Positions 13,259 through 49,936 of a stretch of DNA of 64,000 bases are shown piece by piece. The stretch comes from an archaeon. Lineage in GTDB: Archaea > Nanobdellota > Nanobdellia > SCGC-AAA011-G17 > GW2011-AR17. Under the pieces are notes generated by a model that ran no database searches, had not been told where the DNA came from, and worked only from the letters and a program-made list of their open reading frames with translations. The DNA lies in contig JBDRRK010000002.1 of assembly GCA_043825775.1 (NCBI GenBank), positions 1,308-65,307 on the forward strand. Direction: 5' to 3'. The position numbers and the translations under genes were made by a program. Position 1 is the first letter of the stretch. Each line of letters starts with the position of its first letter.

Positions 13259-14647
13259 ATGAAAAAAGAGTTGATGGTAGCAATTGCTATTCTAGTTGTT
13301 TTTACAATGTTACTTCAGGTTTCAATTATTGGTAATATTACTTTCTTAAGAAATCCAACATTTAATCTTCCTGTTACAACTTTAAGTTGTACACAAGGAG
13401 ATTGTGATTTAGATGCAAAAAAATGGTGCGATGGTTCTGGGACTTGGATCATAAATGGTTATGAACAAGAATGTGGAACACAAGATTATGATTATAACAA
13501 AACTTATTGTGAGATAGGAAGTTGTGATTATAATAATTATTTTTATTGTGCAAACAATCAATGGTTTAGTGATTATTATTGTGATGATTCTAATTGTGGT
13601 AATGAAGCTGAGTCTGCAAGTTATTGTTCTTGTACTAATCCAGTTACTGAAGTTTGCATAAATAACAAAGATGATGATTGTGATGGAAAAGTAGATTGTT
13701 TAGATACTGATTGTGGTGATTGTGCTTGTGTTGAAGGAGAGACTATAAGTTGTAGTACTGATGTTGGTGAATGTACTTTAGGAGTTCAATATTGTGAGAA
13801 TGGAAATTGGGGAAGTTGTACTGGAGTTGAACCAAGTTCTGATGTTTGTGATGAATTGGATAATGATTGTGATGGTCAAGTAGATGAAGACTGTCTCTGT
13901 GTTCAAGGGGAGATAAAAGATTGTGGTAGTGATATTGGAGTTTGTAATGCTGGAACACAAGTTTGTGTGGATGGAAGATGGAGTATATGTTATGGTGCAA
14001 GTTATGCTGCTTCTGGTGATGAGATTTGTAATGGAAAAGATGATGATTGTGATGGAGAGATAGATGAAGGTTGTGGATGTGTTCATGGAGTTGTTCAAAG
14101 TTGTGGAACAGATGTTGGATTGTGTGAAAAAGGGGAACAAACTTGTGAATCTGGTTCATGGGGAGAGTGTTTGAATGGAATTGAACCTTTTGCTGAAGTT
14201 TGTAGTGATGGTTTGGATAATGATTGTGATGGTAAAGTTGATACTGATGATGAAAATTGTGCTGGTGCTGAACAGATTTTAGAAGAAACCAATGAAGAGA
14301 TTGAGGTTGAAACTAAAATCTATGAAAAGAAAGTAGTTGTTGAAGAGGAAGAGGAAGAAAGAGTCGTTGCAGTTCCAGAGGAAAGTAGTTTTGATATTTT
14401 TTGGATTATAATTCCTGTAATTATTGTTTTAGGTCTTGTTGTGGGGGTTATATTTTATTTAAAATCAAAGAAGAAAAAACCAATTAAAGGTGGATTGAGT
14501 AGCAAACCTATTCAAAAAAGAATTCCTTTACAAAGGCCTTTACAAAAACCTACTGGTAAGCCTACAATGAGGCCAGTAAAAAAAACTAAATTAGATGATG
14601 CTTTAAGCAATTCTTTTAAAAAGACAAAGGAATTATTTGGAAAATAG
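13259..14647 (+). CDS. Membrane-anchored Cys/Asp-rich repeat protein (MopE-like putative metal-binding repeats)
   Basis: Tandem ~58-aa units GxCxxGxQxCxxGxWxxC...ExCxxxDxDCDGxxD; N-terminal hydrophobic segment and C-terminal TM plus basic tail. Confidence 0.8.
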   Translation: MKKELMVAIAILVVFTMLLQVSIIGNITFLRNPTFNLPVTTLSCTQGDCDLDAKKWCDGSGTWIINGYEQECGTQDYDYNKTYCEIGSCDYNNYFYCANNQWFSDYYCDDSNCGNEAESASYCSCTNPVTEVCINNKDDDCDGKVDCLDTDCGDCACVEGETISCSTDVGECTLGVQYCENGNWGSCTGVEPSSDVCDELDNDCDGQVDEDCLCVQGEIKDCGSDIGVCNAGTQVCVDGRWSICYGASYAASGDEICNGKDDDCDGEIDEGCGCVHGVVQSCGTDVGLCEKGEQTCESGSWGECLNGIEPFAEVCSDGLDNDCDGKVDTDDENCAGAEQILEETNEEIEVETKIYEKKVVVEEEEEERVVAVPEESSFDIFWIIIPVIIVLGLVVGVIFYLKSKKKKPIKGGLSSKPIQKRIPLQRPLQKPTGKPTMRPVKKTKLDDALSNSFKKTKELFGK

Positions 14648-36134: not shown

Positions 36135-39100
36135 ATGAAAAGAGGTATGATTATAATAATTATTCTTTTAAGTATATGTTTTGTTAGTGCTGATAATGGT
36201 TGTTGTGCTGAAAAAAATGGAATGTATTGTGTTTATACTGCTGAAGAAGAGTGTACTGGTGATTTTGTAGCTAATGCTGTTTGTGATGATGTTTCTTTTT
36301 GTGATTTAGGTTGTTGTGTTACCGATGATGGTATTTGTGCTCAGCAAACTGGTAAGTATACTTGTGAACAGAATAATGGGGAATGGAGTGATGATGCTAG
36401 TTGTAGTTATTCAGAGTGTGATAAAGGGTGTTGTCAGTTTGGAAATGAGTATAGTTTTACAACTGCTTCTCATTGTTCTGCTGTATATGCTGATTATGAA
36501 ATGGAACCTTCTTTTGATGCTAGTGTTACTGATGAAAGTGAATGTGTTATGAATAATTATTTGGAAGATTATGGTTGTTGCATTACTGAAGATTCATGTG
36601 GTTATGTTACTGGAGAGGAATGTGTTGCTGAAGGGGGGGATTTAGAGAAGGACATCAATACAGGTTATGGTTTTTATGGTGGACAGAGCTGTAAGAGTAT
36701 GGGTGCACTTTTGGATACTGGTGATTATGAGGCTTCTTGTGATTGTGTTTCTACAGATAGTTTAAAATGTACAACTGACCATGATGTTTATGAAACAAAT
36801 ACTTGTGGTGATGTTATAATTGTTGATTCTTGTAGTTATCCTAATTATGCTTGTTCTGAAATGAGTGGAAGTGCGGAGTGTATTTCAACTTCATGTGAAG
36901 ATACTTTTTCTTTTGAGGAGAATAGTGAAACTTATTTTAAAGATTTTAATAGTTATAATGTGTTTTATGATGATAATGGTAAATTAGGTGTAAAAGAGTT
37001 TACACTTGGTGGAAGAAAAGATAATTTTGATACTTGGTGTATTTATGAGAGTCCAGTAGGTAGTTTTAGAGATAGGGTTGGTAGTCAGCAATATAGATCT
37101 TATTGTATTGATGGTGTGGAGTTTATTGAAAGCTGTGGTGAGGCAAGAGAGAAATATTGTGCTATGTATTATGATTCTGATAGAGATGAATTTCATGGAG
37201 ATTGTGTAGATAATAACTTTGAGGAATTTTATGGTTTTGAAGATGTGGAAACTGAAGAAGGTGTAGATAGTGAAAGATTTTATGGTTCTATTAATTATCC
37301 TGTTGAAGATTCTGAAGAAAATTTAGGAGTATCAACTGTTTCTCTTGCAGGAAATAATTATTGTGAATCTGCTTCTATAACCTGTGAAGTTGTTTATGGT
37401 GATTCTGAGTATAAAAATTCTGAAAAATATGGTTGGGAGCCTTATTTGAATACAATCTGTTTAAGACCTACTTTTGCTGCAACAGCTGCAGAGTATTGTA
37501 GTTCAAGAGGAGATTGTGGGATGGAATTGAATGTTCTTGGAATTGAAGGGCAGGATTCTGTAGAGTCATTTAATATTGATTATGATACTTCATTTATTGA
37601 TGGTCTTTGGATTGTTAAAGATGAAAAAGAAATGAACTTTGGAATTGGTCCAACTTGTTTTGATCCTAATGTTATAGGTAAAGAACCACAATTAGCAGTT
37701 ACTTTGCAAGGGCTTGATGGATTTAGTTCTTTTAAATTTATGAGTGAGATGATGTTTATGGTTACTGTTGCACAACCAGATCCTGCGACTTTTATAACAA
37801 CCTTAATTCAAACTTTAATTGTACTTTCTGAACAAGAAGATAATTGTCAATTAATAGAAAAAAATACTTTTGAAGATGATTATTATACAGGTTTAAAAGA
37901 AATTTTTGTTGTTAATGTAAATTTTCTTTCTGATGATATGATACCTTTATGGTTTCCAACTGAAGAAATGGTTTATTATAGTACTTATTGGTTAGAGAGT
38001 TGTGATTCTTCAGATGATAAAGGAAATATGTTAAGTTATAATTTGGGAACAAATTTAGATACTGGAGATTTAGATTTAGATCCAGTTTCACAAGAAAATA
38101 CAGAACAAAGTGTATTTTTTAATTCATTTATTTCTCCTTTATCTGGAGGAATAAGCAATTTGATTATATTGGGTGCAGATATTTCTAAAGTTCAATATAA
38201 TCAACTTAGTGGAGATCCAATTGAATTTGATTCTACAGATCCTCTTACAAATTTACTTTCTGATGCTTTAATTGAAGAATCTAGTGAGGTTAGAAATAAT
38301 TTTGTTATATCAAATGAGTATGGTTTGATAAATCAATTTAAGAGTATAAAACCTTGGATAATGAATAAAAAAGCTTTAACTCCCTATTCTTCAAATCTTG
38401 GAACTTTGTCTAGTTTAGAACATCCAGATGCTTTAACACAATTTGTTGGTTATAGGGCTGCTGATTGTAGTACTGGAGATTCAGAATGGATTGGATTGAT
38501 AGATGAAGATGAGCATTTATTACCTGCTTCAGTAATATATCAATGTGGAGAATGGCAAGCTCCTACTGGAGGAGAGTATTGTGAGTTGTGTGATACTCCA
38601 ACTGAAGAGGGTGGAATATGGTTTAGTAAGGATGGAAGACCTTTTTATGGTGCTGAATGTAATAAATATAGATGTGAAAGTTTAGGAAGTGATTGTAGAT
38701 ATATTGAACAGAATAGGGGAAGTGATCAACCTAAGTGTGTTTCAGTTGATTGTGAACCTGGAGTTCAAGTTGTTAGAACTATGTATGAAGAAGCAATTGA
38801 TGAGTCTACTGCAAATTATCCAGAAATGATTACAAAAGACGAACAACAATATGGTTATACATTAACAAATGTTCCTCCTTCAACTTTATTTTCATTTGGA
38901 GTTGAAACAGATGAATTTGCAGCTTGTAAATTTGTTTCAGATGAAGCAGTACAACAAGTTTTTGAAGCTAATGAAGTAAGTAATTTTGAAGGTTTACTTG
39001 CTATAGGTTATACTTTAGAAGATTTATATGATTTAATGAGTGGAGAAGGTGTTACAAATACTCCTTCTTGGGGAACTGAATGTAGTCCTGAAGATGAAGA

Positions 39101-40109
39101 TTGTAGTCCTGGAATGACTAAACAACATAACATTACTGCAAATGTTATGGGTAGTAGTGAAGAATCAATTTATTATGTTTGGTGTAAAAATCCTTGTGGA
39201 AAAATTAATGATGCTCCCTATATGATTAGATTAGAATCTTCTGAGATTGATCCAACTTATCCTCCAACAATTCAGAGTATTAGTCCTAGTGATGGAGGGT
39301 ATGCAAGATATGATGAAGATAGTGTTGAGACTTATGTTTATACTGACAGACCTGCTACTTGTAGATATTCAAATGCACCAAGTGATAGTTATTCAATAAT
39401 GCAAAATGAATTTTCACAATGTCAGGATGAGAACTTGAATATTATTAATGGAAATTATCAGTGTAGAGAATTTTTAGATATTGGTGATGACTTGAATACA
39501 TTTTATTTTTTATGTAAAGATAATTATGGAAATGAGATGACACAAGCAAAAGAGTGGAGTATCACTAAAAGTGATCCCCTGTTAATTTCACAAACTTCAC
39601 CTTCTGGAACTTTGTATTACAATGATGTTACATTGCAAGTTAGAACACAACAAGGTGCTGAGCAAGGAAAAAGTATATGTTATTTTAAAGAAAATAATCA
39701 GAATAATTATGTTCAAATGTTTGAGAGTAGTGATAATGAATTGTGGTTGCAAGAGTTAAGTGATTTATCAAAAGGAACTTATGAATATGATATTTATTGT
39801 GAAGATGTTGCAGGTAATAGAAATGAAACTACTATTTCATTTACGGTTGATGTTGATAGTTATGCTCCACAGATTGAAAATATTTATTATTTGGGAAGTA
39901 CTCTTTATGTTGTGACTGATGAGGTTACTGATTGTGAGTATGAAACTAGTTCATTTTCTTTTGGAAATGGTTTTTCAATGGCTGGTTCTGCAAGTACTGA
40001 TCATAGTTTTACTGTAACACCTGGCTTTAATGTTTATTATGCAGTTTGTGAAGATGTTTATGGTAATCAAAATTCTCCTTTAATTATAAATTTAGAATAT
40101 TTACAGTAA
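36135..40109 (+). CDS. Large Cys-rich secreted protein, paralog 1 (1324 aa)
   Basis: Signal peptide; CC repeats; WCIYE..DRVGSQQYRxxC; GDCG; WQAPTGGEYCELC; C-terminal Ig-like repeats (CEDVAGN). Confidence 0.85.
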   Translation: MKRGMIIIIILLSICFVSADNGCCAEKNGMYCVYTAEEECTGDFVANAVCDDVSFCDLGCCVTDDGICAQQTGKYTCEQNNGEWSDDASCSYSECDKGCCQFGNEYSFTTASHCSAVYADYEMEPSFDASVTDESECVMNNYLEDYGCCITEDSCGYVTGEECVAEGGDLEKDINTGYGFYGGQSCKSMGALLDTGDYEASCDCVSTDSLKCTTDHDVYETNTCGDVIIVDSCSYPNYACSEMSGSAECISTSCEDTFSFEENSETYFKDFNSYNVFYDDNGKLGVKEFTLGGRKDNFDTWCIYESPVGSFRDRVGSQQYRSYCIDGVEFIESCGEAREKYCAMYYDSDRDEFHGDCVDNNFEEFYGFEDVETEEGVDSERFYGSINYPVEDSEENLGVSTVSLAGNNYCESASITCEVVYGDSEYKNSEKYGWEPYLNTICLRPTFAATAAEYCSSRGDCGMELNVLGIEGQDSVESFNIDYDTSFIDGLWIVKDEKEMNFGIGPTCFDPNVIGKEPQLAVTLQGLDGFSSFKFMSEMMFMVTVAQPDPATFITTLIQTLIVLSEQEDNCQLIEKNTFEDDYYTGLKEIFVVNVNFLSDDMIPLWFPTEEMVYYSTYWLESCDSSDDKGNMLSYNLGTNLDTGDLDLDPVSQENTEQSVFFNSFISPLSGGISNLIILGADISKVQYNQLSGDPIEFDSTDPLTNLLSDALIEESSEVRNNFVISNEYGLINQFKSIKPWIMNKKALTPYSSNLGTLSSLEHPDALTQFVGYRAADCSTGDSEWIGLIDEDEHLLPASVIYQCGEWQAPTGGEYCELCDTPTEEGGIWFSKDGRPFYGAECNKYRCESLGSDCRYIEQNRGSDQPKCVSVDCEPGVQVVRTMYEEAIDESTANYPEMITKDEQQYGYTLTNVPPSTLFSFGVETDEFAACKFVSDEAVQQVFEANEVSNFEGLLAIGYTLEDLYDLMSGEGVTNTPSWGTECSPEDEDCSPGMTKQHNITANVMGSSEESIYYVWCKNPCGKINDAPYMIRLESSEIDPTYPPTIQSISPSDGGYARYDEDSVETYVYTDRPATCRYSNAPSDSYSIMQNEFSQCQDENLNIINGNYQCREFLDIGDDLNTFYFLCKDNYGNEMTQAKEWSITKSDPLLISQTSPSGTLYYNDVTLQVRTQQGAEQGKSICYFKENNQNNYVQMFESSDNELWLQELSDLSKGTYEYDIYCEDVAGNRNETTISFTVDVDSYAPQIENIYYLGSTLYVVTDEVTDCEYETSSFSFGNGFSMAGSASTDHSFTVTPGFNVYYAVCEDVYGNQNSPLIINLEYLQ

Positions 40110-44649: not shown

Positions 44650-45651
44650 ATGCTACCAGACAAAACTTATCAAACAATAAAAGAAGTATTAGAAAAAGCA
44701 AGAAATTATGTATATAATCAGGCTAATTTTGCTATGGTTCAAGCTTATTGGGAGATTGGGAGGGTTATTGTTGAAGAGGAGCAGAAGGGCAAAAGAAGGG
44801 CTGAGTATGGTAAGAAATTGATAAAAGAGATTTCTAAGAGGTTGACTAGGGATTATGGAAAAGGGTTTGATGAATCAAATTTAAGGTATATTAGATTGTT
44901 TTATTTATCTTTTCCAAAATGTGACTCACTGCGTCACGAATTGACTTGGACCCATTATAGGATGATTATGAGACTAGATCAAGAGAATATAAGAAATTTC
45001 TACATGATTGAATCAATAAACAATAAATGGAGTACAAGGGAGTTAGATAGACAGATAAATTCCCTTTTGTATGAGAGAATTTCATTAAGTAGAGATAAAG
45101 AAGGAGCAAAAAAATTATCATTAAAAGGGCAGGAAGTTTTGGAGCCAAGAGATATCTTAAAAGATCCTTTTGTTTTGGAATTTTTGGATTTAAAAGAAAA
45201 TTATTCTGAAAAGGATGTTGAAGAAAAGATAATTAATAGATTAAAAGAATTTTTACTTGAATTGGGGAAAGGGTTTTCTTTTGTTGGTAGACAGAAGAGA
45301 ATAACTGTTGATGGTGACCATTATTATATTGATTTGGTTTTTTATAATTACTTGTTGAAATGTTTTGTTTTAGTTGACTTGAAGATGGGGAAGTTAACTC
45401 CTAAAGATATTGGGCAGATGGACTTTTATGTTAGATTTTTTGATAAAGAAGAGAGATTAAAAGAAGATAATCCAACTGTTGGAATTATTCTTTGTAAAGA
45501 TAAGAAAAAAATGATGATTAAATATACTTTGTTGGAGGAAAGTAAACAAGTATTTGCTTCCAAGTATAAGTTATATCTTCCTACAGAAGATGAGTTAAAG
45601 AAAGAATTAGATTATTACATTTATGATGAATCTACTAGTGAAAAGGATTAA
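44650..45651 (+). CDS. yhcG: YhcG/DUF1016 family PD-(D/E)XK nuclease-like protein
   Basis: YWEIGRVIVEEEQ, GKGFDESNL, LTWTHY, WSTREL, KDPFVLEFL, FLLELGKGFSFVGRQ, IDLVFY, GQMDFY, GIILC, ASKYKLYLPTEDEL. Confidence 0.93.
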   Translation: MLPDKTYQTIKEVLEKARNYVYNQANFAMVQAYWEIGRVIVEEEQKGKRRAEYGKKLIKEISKRLTRDYGKGFDESNLRYIRLFYLSFPKCDSLRHELTWTHYRMIMRLDQENIRNFYMIESINNKWSTRELDRQINSLLYERISLSRDKEGAKKLSLKGQEVLEPRDILKDPFVLEFLDLKENYSEKDVEEKIINRLKEFLLELGKGFSFVGRQKRITVDGDHYYIDLVFYNYLLKCFVLVDLKMGKLTPKDIGQMDFYVRFFDKEERLKEDNPTVGIILCKDKKKMMIKYTLLEESKQVFASKYKLYLPTEDELKKELDYYIYDESTSEKD

Positions 45652-45718: not shown

Positions 45719-48700
45719 TTGAAAAGAGGTAATATAATATTAATTATTTGTATATTGATAGTTCTTTTAGTTTCAAGTGTAAGTGCGTTGAATGCTTGTT
45801 GTGAAGTTACAAGAGATGGTGAGTATTGTAGATATGCTGATGAGAGTGAATGTGCTTCTGATTCCCAGGCTGCTTATGCAACTTGTGAGCAAACTTCTTA
45901 TTGTCAAACGGGTTGTTGTTATTCTTCTGATTCTGGTTTATGTTACAAAAATACTGCAAAAGCAAGATGTGAAGAAGAGGAAGGGAGTACTTGGGTTGAT
46001 TCTGCAAATTGTGAAATAGAACAATGTGATTTGGGTTGTTGTGTTTTAGCTGACCAAGCTTTTTTTGTTACTGAAGTTAAATGTAAAGAAACTGCTTCAC
46101 AGTTTGAAGATTTAGAAATTAATTTTGATAATGATATTGCAACTGAATATGAATGTTTGGAATCTGTAAAGAATCAAGATTGGGGTTGTTGTGTTGAAGG
46201 TGATGATTATGAATTTACAACAAGAGATAATTGTGGAAGTGCTTCATCTGAGGTAACTGTTGATTTTGTTGAAGAAGGTTTTCATCAAGGAATGTTATGT
46301 TCAAATGATTTGTTAAGTGCTGATTGTGCAAAACAACAGTATACTGGTTGTTATGAAGGAAAGGTTTACTGGTATGATAGTTGTGGAAATAGAGAGAATA
46401 TTTATGATGTTGATAAGACTGCAAGTTTTAATGATGGTTATATATTAGAAGATGGAAGTTGTACTTTGAATAGTGCTTATGATTCTAGTTGTGGAAATTG
46501 TGATTATCCAACTGGAACTGTTTGTGGTTCAGATGTTGGAAATGATATGCCTGTTGGTGAGTTTACTTGTGTGGATATAAATTGTTATGATACTTATGAT
46601 GATGATGTTAGTCCTGCAACTGGTGGAGATAAGTTGAATGGTGAGTCCTGGTGTGTTTATGATTCCTTTACTGGAGAGGCAAGGGATGCTGTTGGTTCAA
46701 GACATTATAGATATTTGTGTATTAATGGTGAAGAGGTAGTGGAGCCGTGTACTGATTTTAGAGAACAGATTTGTATTCATGGTATTTTAAGTGCAGATGT
46801 TTTAGGAACTTTGGAATCTTTAAGGTTAAGTGATAATAATAATTATGTTGAAGCTGCTTGTAGGGAAAATAGAAATGAGGATTGTGATGCTTGTAATGAT
46901 TTGGCTACTGAAGATGAAATAATTTCTTGTTGTTCAAATGAAGATTATAGAGATTGTTATTTTTTAGAGGGTGAAGTTGCTAGAGTTGAAAGAGGTACTA
47001 ATATTCCTTTGACTAAATTACAAGAAGAGAATGAGAATTTAGCTTTGGATGCTGTAGTTGGTGGTACTTGTGTTCCACAGATTCCTCCTGGTGAGAAATT
47101 CTGGACTGATAATGGTGATGCTGATAGTGCTTCAACTTCAGATGTTTGTAATGTTGCAACAAGAGAGTGTACTGCTACATGGAGAATTGGTGGTTGGAAG
47201 AAATTATTTGGTGGTAAGGGGAATCCGGATGCTTGGAGTATTGTTGAAGAGAGTCCTGAAGGTTGTACTGAAAGGAGTTGGTTAGTTTCTCAAAATACAC
47301 TTTGTAAAGCTCAAGGTGATTGTGGTGCTTATTATAATTATTTAGGTGAAGCTGGTTTTGATGGTTTTACAAGTGATATGTTAGGAGAAGAGTTTTTCTT
47401 TAATTATGATGAGTTGGATTCTTCAGATTTGGATGATTGGGATTATTTGATTAATACTGGTGGGGGAGAGATAAAGTATTATGGTCCTAAGTCTAGATAT
47501 TTCTATACTAATCCCGCTTTTGCAGTTGGAATTGCTTCTTTTACTGCTGGGGGAATTGCAAATGTAGTTTCTTGTAGTGAAGCTAAAGGTGCTGGATTGA
47601 GTACTAAGTTTGGAGATGCAGGAAATAGTTTACAGAGTATTTTATCTTTTGGTTCTACTGCTGCTGGAGGAGCAAAAGCTTTAGGTTTAGCTACTGGTGT
47701 TGATATGGTTACTGGAAATGCTGTTGTTGCTGATGATCCATGTAGTATTTATGATTTGTATGCATGTAATGAACAATATAACACTTTTTACATATGTGAA
47801 GAAGATGATATAGGAGATAAGTATTGGAGAATAAAAGAAGCTTGTGGAACCTCTGCATATTGCGATGCTGACTTATGTTCTATTGGAACAAGCAAAGATG
47901 ATTGTTGTATAGATTTACCTGAAGAAGAAATTGTTACTGAAGAAGATACAACAATTCCAGAGACAAAAGATTTGGTTCCTGAACAAAAAAAAGTTGTTGA
48001 AGAAAAACCAACTGAAGAGAAAGTTGCAGAAACAATTGGAAATTATATTATTCAAGGAGGAGATAGTCTTTCAGAAATTGCAAGTAAATGTGGTACTACA
48101 GTTGATGCTTTACAAAAATCAAATCCTTCTATAACTGATGTTGATAAAATTGTAGAGGGTTCAAGGTTAAATATTCCTAATTTCGATGATTGTAAATTTG
48201 GAACAACTAAAAGTACTGTTGAAAGTGCAGTTGGTGCTGACAAAACTTTAGACTTTATGGAAGGGATTGGATGTTTTTTAACAGGAGCTACTCCTATTGT
48301 TGGTTTGTTTGGAAAACCAGCTGGTACAACTACTGAAGGTTGGGAAGATAGAGTTACAGAAGCTGCTGGAGATGGTGCAACTGGAATTATAAGCTCAATT
48401 AAAAAAGCTAAAGGGGCAAAAACAGTTTCAAGAGTTTCAAATGTTGTTACAATTGCAATGGCTGCTTATCTTGCAGTAGAATACTTAGCTGATAATGAAA
48501 CTACTATTACTTATACTGCTGAATGTAATCAGTGGCAACCACCTAAGGGTGGAGAGGATTGTGAATTGTGTAATGATGAGAATAAACCTTGTTCAGAATA
48601 TAGATGTAGATCTTTAGGGGCTGCTTGTGAATTAATTAATCAAGGTTCAGAAAATGAAACATGTATATCTACAAATGTTAATGATGTTAATAGTCCTCAG

Positions 48701-49936
48701 TTAAGTGTAAATTTAGATTTATTAAGTGATGATTATACAATTAAAGAAACAACAGAGGAAGGAAATAAAGGATTTATACTTAATGAGTTGGTTCCACCTT
48801 TCACACCTGTTCAATTAGGTATTACAAGTGATGAACCGGCAACATGTAAGTATGCAACGCAGCCAGGATTGGAGTATGATGAGATGAGTTATACTTTTGG
48901 TTCTGAATTATACTTGTATAATCATGCTTTACTAATGTCTTTAGGAGATGGGGTTACTATTGAAGAAATTTTAGCTTTAACTAATGGAGAATATACAATT
49001 TATGTAAGATGTTCTGATTATCAAGGTAATGCAAATGAAAGAGATTATTTCATTAGATTTACCGTTGAAGACACGCCGGATTTAAGTCCTCCACAGATTA
49101 TGTTTACCTCTGTAAATGATGGAACTTACTTGGCTTATAATGTTAATGAGACTAGCTTTGCTATTTATACTAATGAGCCTGCAACATGTAAGTGGGATTT
49201 ACAAGATACTTCTTTTAATGTTATGGAAAATGAAATGAGCTGTGTTGAAAGTAGTTATCAGCAATCATCTATTTATTATGGAACATATCCTTGTTCAGGA
49301 ACAATTAAAGGAGAGAATGATGAGTTGAATTATTTCTACTTTAAATGTCAAGATAGAGAAGGAAATACTAATGAAGATAGTTTTAAATTTACTTTGAAGT
49401 CTTCTGACGAGGAATTAACAATTAGTTCAATGGAACCTGAAGGTGTTTTATATAATGATTCTATTACAGTTACTGTTGAAACAGATGGTGGAGCTGATAG
49501 TGGAGTTTCTGAATGTGGATTTAGCATGGATACAAATGATTTCCAAGATATGACTTTGTTTTTGAATACTAATAGTTCAAAACATTCACAGGAATTGAAT
49601 TTATTTACTGGAGATTATACTTTGTATGTTACATGTCAAGATGTAGCTGGTAATATGGATTCAACAAGTAGAGAGGTTAGTGTAGAAACGGATGATAAAG
49701 GGCCAAGTATCGTTAACTTTTACATTGATGAAGCTTATTATACTTTAATTTTAGAAACTAATGAGGAAGCTGCTTGTGAATATGCAACTGAACCATTTAC
49801 CTTTGGAGAAGGAGTAGAGATGTCAGGGACTGTTGTTCATGAGGCAACAATTGGACAATTATTATATTATGTTACTTGTGAGGATACAAGAGGGAACCAA
49901 GGTTCTTACATATTAGATATATCATTGTGGGTGTAA
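45719..49936 (+). CDS. Large Cys-rich secreted protein, paralog 3 (1405 aa), with central LysM domain
   Basis: Same conserved ends as paralogs 1 and 2; LysM YIIQGGDSLSEIASKCGTTVDALQKSNPSITDVDKIVEGSRLNIP at 48044-48178. Confidence 0.87.
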   Translation: MKRGNIILIICILIVLLVSSVSALNACCEVTRDGEYCRYADESECASDSQAAYATCEQTSYCQTGCCYSSDSGLCYKNTAKARCEEEEGSTWVDSANCEIEQCDLGCCVLADQAFFVTEVKCKETASQFEDLEINFDNDIATEYECLESVKNQDWGCCVEGDDYEFTTRDNCGSASSEVTVDFVEEGFHQGMLCSNDLLSADCAKQQYTGCYEGKVYWYDSCGNRENIYDVDKTASFNDGYILEDGSCTLNSAYDSSCGNCDYPTGTVCGSDVGNDMPVGEFTCVDINCYDTYDDDVSPATGGDKLNGESWCVYDSFTGEARDAVGSRHYRYLCINGEEVVEPCTDFREQICIHGILSADVLGTLESLRLSDNNNYVEAACRENRNEDCDACNDLATEDEIISCCSNEDYRDCYFLEGEVARVERGTNIPLTKLQEENENLALDAVVGGTCVPQIPPGEKFWTDNGDADSASTSDVCNVATRECTATWRIGGWKKLFGGKGNPDAWSIVEESPEGCTERSWLVSQNTLCKAQGDCGAYYNYLGEAGFDGFTSDMLGEEFFFNYDELDSSDLDDWDYLINTGGGEIKYYGPKSRYFYTNPAFAVGIASFTAGGIANVVSCSEAKGAGLSTKFGDAGNSLQSILSFGSTAAGGAKALGLATGVDMVTGNAVVADDPCSIYDLYACNEQYNTFYICEEDDIGDKYWRIKEACGTSAYCDADLCSIGTSKDDCCIDLPEEEIVTEEDTTIPETKDLVPEQKKVVEEKPTEEKVAETIGNYIIQGGDSLSEIASKCGTTVDALQKSNPSITDVDKIVEGSRLNIPNFDDCKFGTTKSTVESAVGADKTLDFMEGIGCFLTGATPIVGLFGKPAGTTTEGWEDRVTEAAGDGATGIISSIKKAKGAKTVSRVSNVVTIAMAAYLAVEYLADNETTITYTAECNQWQPPKGGEDCELCNDENKPCSEYRCRSLGAACELINQGSENETCISTNVNDVNSPQLSVNLDLLSDDYTIKETTEEGNKGFILNELVPPFTPVQLGITSDEPATCKYATQPGLEYDEMSYTFGSELYLYNHALLMSLGDGVTIEEILALTNGEYTIYVRCSDYQGNANERDYFIRFTVEDTPDLSPPQIMFTSVNDGTYLAYNVNETSFAIYTNEPATCKWDLQDTSFNVMENEMSCVESSYQQSSIYYGTYPCSGTIKGENDELNYFYFKCQDREGNTNEDSFKFTLKSSDEELTISSMEPEGVLYNDSITVTVETDGGADSGVSECGFSMDTNDFQDMTLFLNTNSSKHSQELNLFTGDYTLYVTCQDVAGNMDSTSREVSVETDDKGPSIVNFYIDEAYYTLILETNEEAACEYATEPFTFGEGVEMSGTVVHEATIGQLLYYVTCEDTRGNQGSYILDISLWV

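Follow-up and report, generated by a model that had tools for sequence, protein, structure and literature searches.

Why would an archaeon that is unlikely to build a murein wall of its own carry, in the middle of a giant protein, a domain typical of bacterial cell wall enzymes? The question is raised by a 64,000-nucleotide stretch of DNA (hereafter the window; contig JBDRRK010000002.1 of assembly GCA_043825775.1, positions 1,308 to 65,307) from a Woesearchaeales-type DPANN archaeon living in groundwater. The window encodes tandem giant Cys-rich paralogs, and one of them, paralog 3, contains a LysM domain. We find that the domain itself is canonical. What is new is its setting: a single LysM sits mid-protein, at a defined hypervariable site of a giant Cys-rich envelope protein that is archaeal and non-enzymatic. 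Judged from the sequence, it is about an even call whether this LysM is a surface-exposed module that binds glycans containing N-acetylglucosamine (GlcNAc), most likely bacterial peptidoglycan.

Paralog 3 divides into conserved outer blocks and a variable centre, as laid out below. Hydropathy values on the Kyte-Doolittle (KD) and Hessa scales are approximate throughout; pLDDT is the predicted local distance difference test score, TM stands for transmembrane, and G002 is a second species of the genus.

45719..49936, plus strand: paralog 3, a giant Cys-rich protein of 1405 residues with 75 Cys and a TTG start (open reading frame list and translation)
45719..45790, plus strand: N-terminal hydrophobic signal segment, residues 1-24 (KRG, a hydrophobic run, then SVSA; KD 3.18, Hessa sum -4.8 for residues 6-24)
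45791..47518, plus strand: conserved N-terminal Cys-rich block, residues 25-600 (58-84% identity to the G002 ortholog per 50-residue window; aligns with paralogs 1 and 2)
47519..47734, plus strand: Gly/Ala-rich hydrophobic stretch 1, residues 601-672 (marginal TM propensity, KD 1.57, Hessa +4.0 for residues 601-619; hydrophobicity kept in orthologs)
47735..47926, plus strand: small Cys-rich mini-domain, residues 673-736 (8 Cys at 675-730), which opens the species-specific block and is missing from the G002 and G001 orthologs
47927..48043, plus strand: Pro/Glu/Lys/Thr-rich spacer, residues 737-775 (predicted disordered, pLDDT ~30)
48044..48178, plus strand: LysM domain, residues 776-820 (full PF01476 model, above cut-off)
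48179..48253, plus strand: post-LysM tail of the block, residues 821-845, containing Cys825
48254..48490, plus strand: Gly-rich hydrophobic stretch 2 (residues 846-864), a basic loop and a conserved helix (residues 906-924) (KD 1.44-1.51, Hessa +5.0 to +5.2; kept in orthologs; a conserved NET sequon comes next)
48491..49933, plus strand: conserved C-terminal block with Cys knots and immunoglobulin (Ig)-like repeats (Big_13, DUF4625 and Y_Y_Y matches below or near threshold; 52-68% identity to G002 per 50-residue window)

The LysM assignment is firm. A Pfam scan, which the earlier note on this DNA had proposed, gave a full-model match to PF01476 over residues 776-820 of the whole protein (model positions 1-43 of 43, 30.9 bits, E 2.6e-7, curated cut-off 20.9). 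The isolated 141-residue segment scored 35.4 bits (E 1.1e-8), and a six-frame scan of the genome 37.1 bits. Every position of the LysM consensus (Y/h-x-V/I-x-x-G-D-T/S-L, IA, G, L, N, I, G-x-x-L-x-I/V-P) is present, in agreement with the canonical LysM that the note had read directly from the letters at 48044..48178. Its description of the surroundings also held: the LysM follows a small Cys domain and a linker rich in Glu and Lys (and in Pro and Thr), and lies between Gly/Ala-rich hydrophobic stretches (residues 601-672 and 846-924). The mini-domain is predicted by AlphaFold2 (AF2) as a beta-hairpin, with a pLDDT of only 52-71. As the note had also stated, the domain is missing from paralogs 1 and 2 (no Pfam match at E <= 0.1), which have the N- and C-terminal blocks in common with paralog 3 at 30% and 35% identity.

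Elsewhere in the genome, LysM was detected only as two copies in one unrelated open reading frame (ORF) on another contig (G000:C15:78902-79198; locus L002, ORF 4-2529). The encoded protein, of at least 841 residues, is very acidic, with one hydrophobic segment, and its two LysM copies (53.1 bits together) precede a C-terminal helix-turn-helix (HTH)-like region, an odd pairing of wall binding and DNA binding. Relatives in the same genus (619-622 residues) have a partial LysM match.

Where might the domain have come from? Residues 690-830 were searched against 1.84 billion representative sequences, giving 6003 matches at E <= 0.001. Each of the best 150 of these lay within query positions 38-141; none covered positions 1-37 (residues 690-726, a portion of the Cys mini-domain, whose residues 675-689 the query did not include), so spacer and LysM explain every one of these 150 matches. 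The most similar single LysM, with 28 of 44 residues identical (64% over 44 residues), belongs to a 2966-residue protein with PT-HINT and RTX domains, and those relatives that bear a name are annotated as 'LysM peptidoglycan-binding' proteins in bacteria (Streptococcus and Christensenellales-like lineages). A comparison by sequence with solved structures placed the LysMs of Bacillus subtilis LytE (8i2e, E 4e-9), Ecp6 (4b8v, E 5e-6), Thermus thermophilus (4uz2) and CERK1 (4eby, E 3e-5) nearest, and also found that of a fern chitinase (E 1e-4). The paralog 3 LysM is thus a generic bacterial-type LysM, and its 45 residues are too few to name a donor. We also considered birth by duplication of the two LysMs on the other contig and rejected it; the sequences are not close by eye, and the nearest database relatives are bacterial repeats.

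Is the domain a recent arrival, as the earlier note had it? The best match in G002 is the positional ortholog of paralog 3, within a common gene order (orf214, paralog 1, paralog 2, orf256, paralog 3, orf163, orf326, orf172). The two loci differ by one extra paralog in G002 and by two extra small genes hugging paralog 3 in our genome. Identity per 50-residue window is 58-84% in the flanks and falls to 4-34% across residues 601-900, where the block at residues 673-845 (~170 residues: the 8-Cys mini-domain, spacer and LysM) stands opposite ~45 unrelated residues. In the other genome of the genus (G001), the ortholog is split between the end of one contig (G001:C71) and the start of another (G001:C67) and otherwise matches that of G002; the break falls precisely on the cargo site, perhaps as a result of strain heterogeneity. 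The block is therefore specific to this lineage, and the claim of an insertion stands in that sense. A recent date finds no support. Base composition is native rather than foreign, with the block as AT-rich as the gene (GC 0.316 versus 0.338, and 0.098 versus 0.147 at third codon positions), and a search of the sequence on both sides of the block for repeats or target-site duplications returned only chance-size matches (10-25 nt at 68-100% identity), none bracketing it. Since composition is native and no repeats bracket the block, a recent insertion is not demonstrable; moreover, this species and that of G002 are already ~35% diverged in the paralog 3 protein. The history of the site looks more like turnover of a hypervariable cargo than a clean insertion. 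A diversity-generating retroelement was rejected as the cause, because the variation consists of whole-domain replacement and not of adenine-directed point changes.

The allele is not an assembly artefact, because near-identical short contigs occur in another study's sequencing runs. In the likely source run, the stretch lies in one contig at a depth of 27 with zero differences. Short contigs over the spacer and LysM (47953-48023, 47961-48139 and 48100-48258) also occur in two runs of another groundwater study; they are identical or differ at 2 positions. None of the four runs examined contained a contig joining across the whole block, and the uncovered parts are uninformative.

Variability at this site extends well beyond the genus. 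Paralog 3 belongs to an unannotated family of giant Cys-rich proteins that 37 of 41 related genomes encode, most often in several tandem copies, and it has all the family hallmarks: the N-terminal Cys-rich block, a GDCGA motif, a C..WQ.P.GG..CE.C motif and C-terminal Ig-like repeats. We aligned the paralogs, 19 orthologous pieces from 18 genomes, and 251 database homologs; the named homologs are all 'hypothetical protein' entries from Woesearchaeota/Nanoarchaeota metagenome-assembled genomes (MAGs). Across the 19 pieces, only the nearest genera can be aligned over the stretch from the conserved hydrophobic segment at residue ~600 to the conserved helix at residue ~910. Ten close homologs (37-64% identity) each carry a different central cargo, including small Cys-rich modules, acidic or coiled-coil spacers, and one metal-binding-type motif. 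Among the 120 listed homologs (of 251), 82 have both anchor motifs, and in these the centre spans 93-529 residues (median 258.5) with 0-20 Cys. Precomputed Pfam annotation places LysM, the sole Pfam-recognizable cargo, on 1 of the 120, namely paralog 3 itself. The comparison of orthologs that the note had suggested thus agrees with a lineage-specific module.

Two sequence features flank the variable cargo. A short I/V-T-G-N/D-A motif recurs just before it in the close clade (homologs P0006-P0011; residues ~660-668 of paralog 3), and a conserved G-x-G-C-F..GA.PI.GL segment follows it; these may be the boundaries of an exchangeable cassette. The metal-binding-type cargo, found in homolog P0009, is similar to the MopE-type 'putative metal-binding motif' (PF11617, 47.9 bits) of a 462-residue ORF elsewhere in the window (13259-14647).

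Has a LysM reached this site more than once? LysM is sporadic in the lineage, occurring in 5 of the 41 relatives, in 33 of 240 genomes of the order, and in 38 of 401 genomes sampled from the class. Open frames of more than 1000 residues with a LysM number only two in the 240 genomes, paralog 3 and a gene on G166:C12; in the class sample, paralog 3 is the only one. The G166 protein (1206 residues) comes from another taxonomic family, yet it is a genuine member of the giant Cys-rich protein family, 32-34% identical to paralog 3 over both conserved blocks. Its LysM (residues 629-672, 23.5 bits) likewise lies in the centre of the protein, with other local surroundings, and we obtained no alignment between it and the LysM of paralog 3. 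These sequences indicate that LysM entered the central site of the family at least twice, independently, which suggests that the site is a useful place for a glycan-binding module. The earlier note had read the LysM as a target-recognition module; this is plausible, the more so because a remote member of the family has independently gained a LysM of its own at that site.

The least secure point of this reading is that the centre of the protein lies outside the cell, which we nevertheless consider likely. The N-terminal segment is strongly signal-like (KD 3.18, Hessa -4.8), in contrast to the marginal internal stretches (KD 1.4-1.6, Hessa +4 to +5), whose equivalents in the G166 member are polar. 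The cargo is rich in Cys without the CxxC spacing of zinc sites, and 23 of the 24 closest homologs have an even number of central Cys, although this is weak evidence that varies with the boundaries chosen for the region. Arguing against exposure, two unmistakable TM helices occupy the homologous positions of paralog 2, and in paralog 3 a basic cluster precedes helix 906-924 with the conserved NET sequon after it, an arrangement compatible with a membrane hairpin whose loop is cytoplasmic. Nor must LysM be extracellular in this organism, because in the genome's second LysM protein an HTH shares the half of the protein that holds the LysMs. The centre might then be a cytoplasmic loop between two membrane helices, or, at a site that tolerates almost any sequence, the LysM might be a neutral passenger of cassette turnover with no role in glycan binding. 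We regard this pair of explanations as rather unlikely, given the hydropathy of the paralog 3 segments, the polar G166 equivalents, the Cys pattern of the cargo, and a LysM that keeps all Pfam consensus positions and was acquired twice.

The N-termini and centres of the paralogs show further variation. A KRG followed by a hydrophobic run begins paralogs 1 and 3, most close orthologs of paralog 3, and a pilin-like ORF at 50858 (KRGQ...; window 36135-36200, 45719-45790 and 50858-50940), and paralog 2 begins with M-R-G, its hydrophobic run set back. In paralog 2, two strong TM helices and an Ala/Thr/Gly-rich joining stretch (residues 594-696) replace the variable centre, and the centre of paralog 1 is not hydrophobic. 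The three paralogs may thus differ in the manner or presence of membrane anchoring.

Which glycan would an exposed LysM bind? LysM modules of bacterial wall hydrolases are described as binding GlcNAc-containing glycan strands. Those of B. subtilis LytE (8i2e), T. thermophilus NlpC/P60 (4uz2/4uz3) and SafA (7r1l) belong to the same Pfam family as the paralog 3 LysM, and have the same length and the consensus GDS/TL..IA..G.T...L...N.....I..G..L.IP. They are terminal tandem repeats on an enzyme, in a bacterium with its own wall. Paralog 3 instead has a single LysM in the middle of a non-enzymatic, 1405-residue archaeal Cys-rich protein, and no murein genes were detected in its genome. The scans gave no match to SLT (PF01464), PG_binding_1, transpeptidase or FtsW/RodA models. 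A single Mur_ligase_M match was rejected as a sign of murein synthesis because the same model also matches two archaeal control genomes. With those models unmatched and the Mur ligase match common to archaeal controls, a murein wall of its own is unlikely for this archaeon.

The genome also encodes candidate peptidoglycan-cleaving enzymes. The earlier note had proposed a lysozyme-like domain at ~6.7-7.1 kb, and we place it as follows.

6610..7230, plus strand: lysozyme-like domain near the C-terminus of a 2253-residue ORF (736-7497), proposed from homolog names, motifs, and an AF2 model aligned with VIA-align

The fold of this domain is moderately supported; a curated family match is lacking, because nothing in Pfam or NCBIfam (E <= 0.1-1) or among Protein Data Bank (PDB) sequences matched 6610-7230. 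The family has 578 homologs (113-363 residues) and no Pfam model. Among the 120 of these that were listed, 8 are named 'lysozyme family protein', 3 carry PF01471 (PG_binding_1) and 1 carries PF01476 (LysM). H-x-R-E-S and E..YNG.GY motifs are invariant in 35 aligned sequences, and E67-S68 fall within the former, at the end of helix 57-68; E67 is the putative catalytic Glu. The AF2 model (pLDDT 78.3) aligned best with MltF (5aa1_A; Z 7.4, root mean square deviation 3.6 over 125 residues), and the 16 chains at Z >= 5 are nearly all muramidases or lytic transglycosylases, with MltF, Slt70, MltE, goose-type lysozyme and FlgJ (Z 5-7.4) as best partners. Foldseek against the PDB gave a best E of 0.23 and nothing at E <= 0.001.

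A second lysozyme-like copy, 48% identical, lies elsewhere in the genome (G000:C13:68721-69272; locus L049, ORF 1498-2538, minus strand), in a 346-residue protein with hydrophobic N-terminal segments. Two ORFs downstream of it were considered as an M15-like peptidase and a SleB-like hydrolase and rejected, as neither had a Pfam match. The note had suggested that the LysM complements the lysozyme-like domain of the window. This is circumstantial, because the two are in different genes ~40 kb apart and the lysozyme-like domain, sporadic like LysM, occurs in only 2 of the 41 relatives.

We scanned 25 further LysM ORFs from the order, of which 10 also encode SLT and 2 an M15 peptidase (E <= 1e-4). 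We favor peptidoglycan as the ligand because two lysozyme-like domains are encoded in a genome that shows no trace of making murein itself, and because of these SLT and M15 fusions of LysM in the order. Chitin, chito-oligosaccharides or another GlcNAc polymer of the aquifer would be the alternative, with the exposed LysM attaching the cell to particles or to eukaryotic or fungal material. Solved relatives at similar E-values include chitin binders (Ecp6, CERK1 and the fern chitinase LysM), and the Cys inside and just after the LysM recall the disulfide-stapled LysMs of fungi and plants. Cys825 is a possible disulfide partner of Cys791 inside the LysM; it aligns with the Cys following LysM3 of Ecp6, where the alignment spans that Cys. 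Ecp6 and the CERK1 ectodomain are also extracellular recognition modules without catalytic activity, just as paralog 3 has no recognizable catalytic domain. They differ from it in packing three LysMs into a composite high-affinity chitin site, in being eukaryotic, and in having no scaffold in common with it. That LysM can bind chitin is stated in PMC12352652. Even so, a chitin-type ligand seems unlikely to us: by sequence, the domain is nearest overall to LysM repeats of the bacterial cell-wall type, the companion enzymes of the genome resemble muramidases and lytic transglycosylases, and LysM in the order is by our count mostly fused to SLT or M15 murein hydrolases (10/25 and 2/25).

The ligand could also be the archaeon's own, an alternative that the earlier note had named for N-glycans. 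GlcNAc-containing N-glycans on the S-layer or on neighboring giant proteins could tether the central loop, in the way that LysM anchors autolysins to their own wall. Paralog 3 lies within an envelope cluster of AglB/STT3, glycosyltransferase, pilin-like and S-layer protein genes, which suits this explanation. Self-anchoring of a scaffold would, however, make LysM common in the family, where it is found on a single listed homolog and in two giant ORFs among 240 genomes, and the same-genus orthologs manage without it. We therefore consider binding to the organism's own glycans quite improbable.

Several further observations weigh against a peptidoglycan-binding module at the surface. A single LysM usually binds weakly, and the solved relatives include the chitin binders named above. 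Our AF2 model of residues 520-1010, built with 17 orthologs, was unusable (mean pLDDT 44, predicted TM-score 0.27); it has two helices roughly where a LysM should have them, at a pLDDT of ~33-37 that makes them untrustworthy, in a part of the alignment without orthologs. The LysM and SLT ORFs of relatives sit on MAG contigs of unconfirmed binning. The fold matches of the lysozyme-like domain are below Z 8, so a common helical arrangement is still conceivable.

Wall-targeting modules of bacterial type have been reported in related archaea. PMC12352652 describes archaeal modular peptidoglycan hydrolases and PMC9723730 a Woesearchaeota 'large lytic murein transglycosylase'; these likewise are acquisitions by archaea, prominent in Nanoarchaeota/Woesearchaeota, and are read there as antibacterial. 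Those proteins are enzymes with binding domains. Paralog 3 differs in having no recognizable catalytic domain, and the lysozyme-like domains of this genome are of a family without a Pfam model. Our literature search, which did not cover subscription journals, found no published description of the giant Cys-rich family or of LysM on DPANN surface proteins.

Taken in this light, paralog 3 would be an exported giant Cys-rich envelope protein built on a conserved scaffold of N- and C-terminal blocks. The ~300 residues between them would be a hypervariable cargo site, probably exposed at the surface. In this species the cargo would consist of a mini-domain rich in disulfides, a flexible spacer of Pro, Glu and Lys, and a single canonical LysM of bacterial type, which most likely binds GlcNAc-containing glycan strands, with the peptidoglycan of neighboring bacteria as the favored ligand. 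Numerous copies on the surface would then jointly serve as a bacterial-wall adhesin.

The genomic setting is that of an archaeal envelope locus. The genome of the window comprises 942 kb and is 96% complete; the window has a GC content of ~31% and carries nearly all its genes on one strand. Pfam identified archaeal genes for TFIIB, AglB/STT3, a class III signal pilin, archaeal type IV pilus ATPase and platform proteins, and an S_layer_C protein. Paralog 3 is accompanied by the tandem giant paralogs, a KRGQ-type pilin-like ORF (50858-51349), and the S_layer_C protein (53562-55847). Its neighbors include the following.

36135..40109, plus strand: paralog 1 (1324 residues), without LysM and without an internal TM-like segment
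40144..43647, plus strand: paralog 2 (1167 residues), without LysM; its centre has two clear TM helices (residues 594-612 and 678-696)
44650..45651, plus strand: YhcG/DUF1016 PD-(D/E)xK nuclease gene (Pfam), directly upstream of paralog 3; no counterpart at the G002 locus (synteny BLAST)
50033..50617, plus strand: DUF2204-like nucleotidyltransferase gene, directly downstream of paralog 3 (weak Pfam match, 19.2 bits versus a cut-off of 20.3); no counterpart at the G002 locus (synteny BLAST)

At the G002 locus, a fourth giant paralog stands in place of the nuclease and nucleotidyltransferase pair that flanks paralog 3. The paralog 3 locus looks like a hotspot of gene turnover.

What does a LysM at this site mean for the biology of the family? 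Because it has a defined hypervariable cargo site, the family is a candidate determinant of partner specificity across the order. A broader proposal, which we hold to be doubtful, is that the giant Cys-rich proteins of Woesearchaeales are modular display adhesins, in which a conserved scaffold presents a lineage-swapped central cassette that sets the partner cell. The swapping of tail-fiber tips is a comparable feature of phages. If this were true, each of the two independent arrivals of LysM would record a lineage's switch to bacterial hosts or prey with peptidoglycan walls, and the cargo of this gene family could predict the partners of uncultured DPANN archaea. The LysM module is also a possible probe with which to look for the partner in groundwater. 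That a protein predicted to be a major component of the surface carries a canonical wall-binding module bears on whether DPANN archaea physically engage bacteria.

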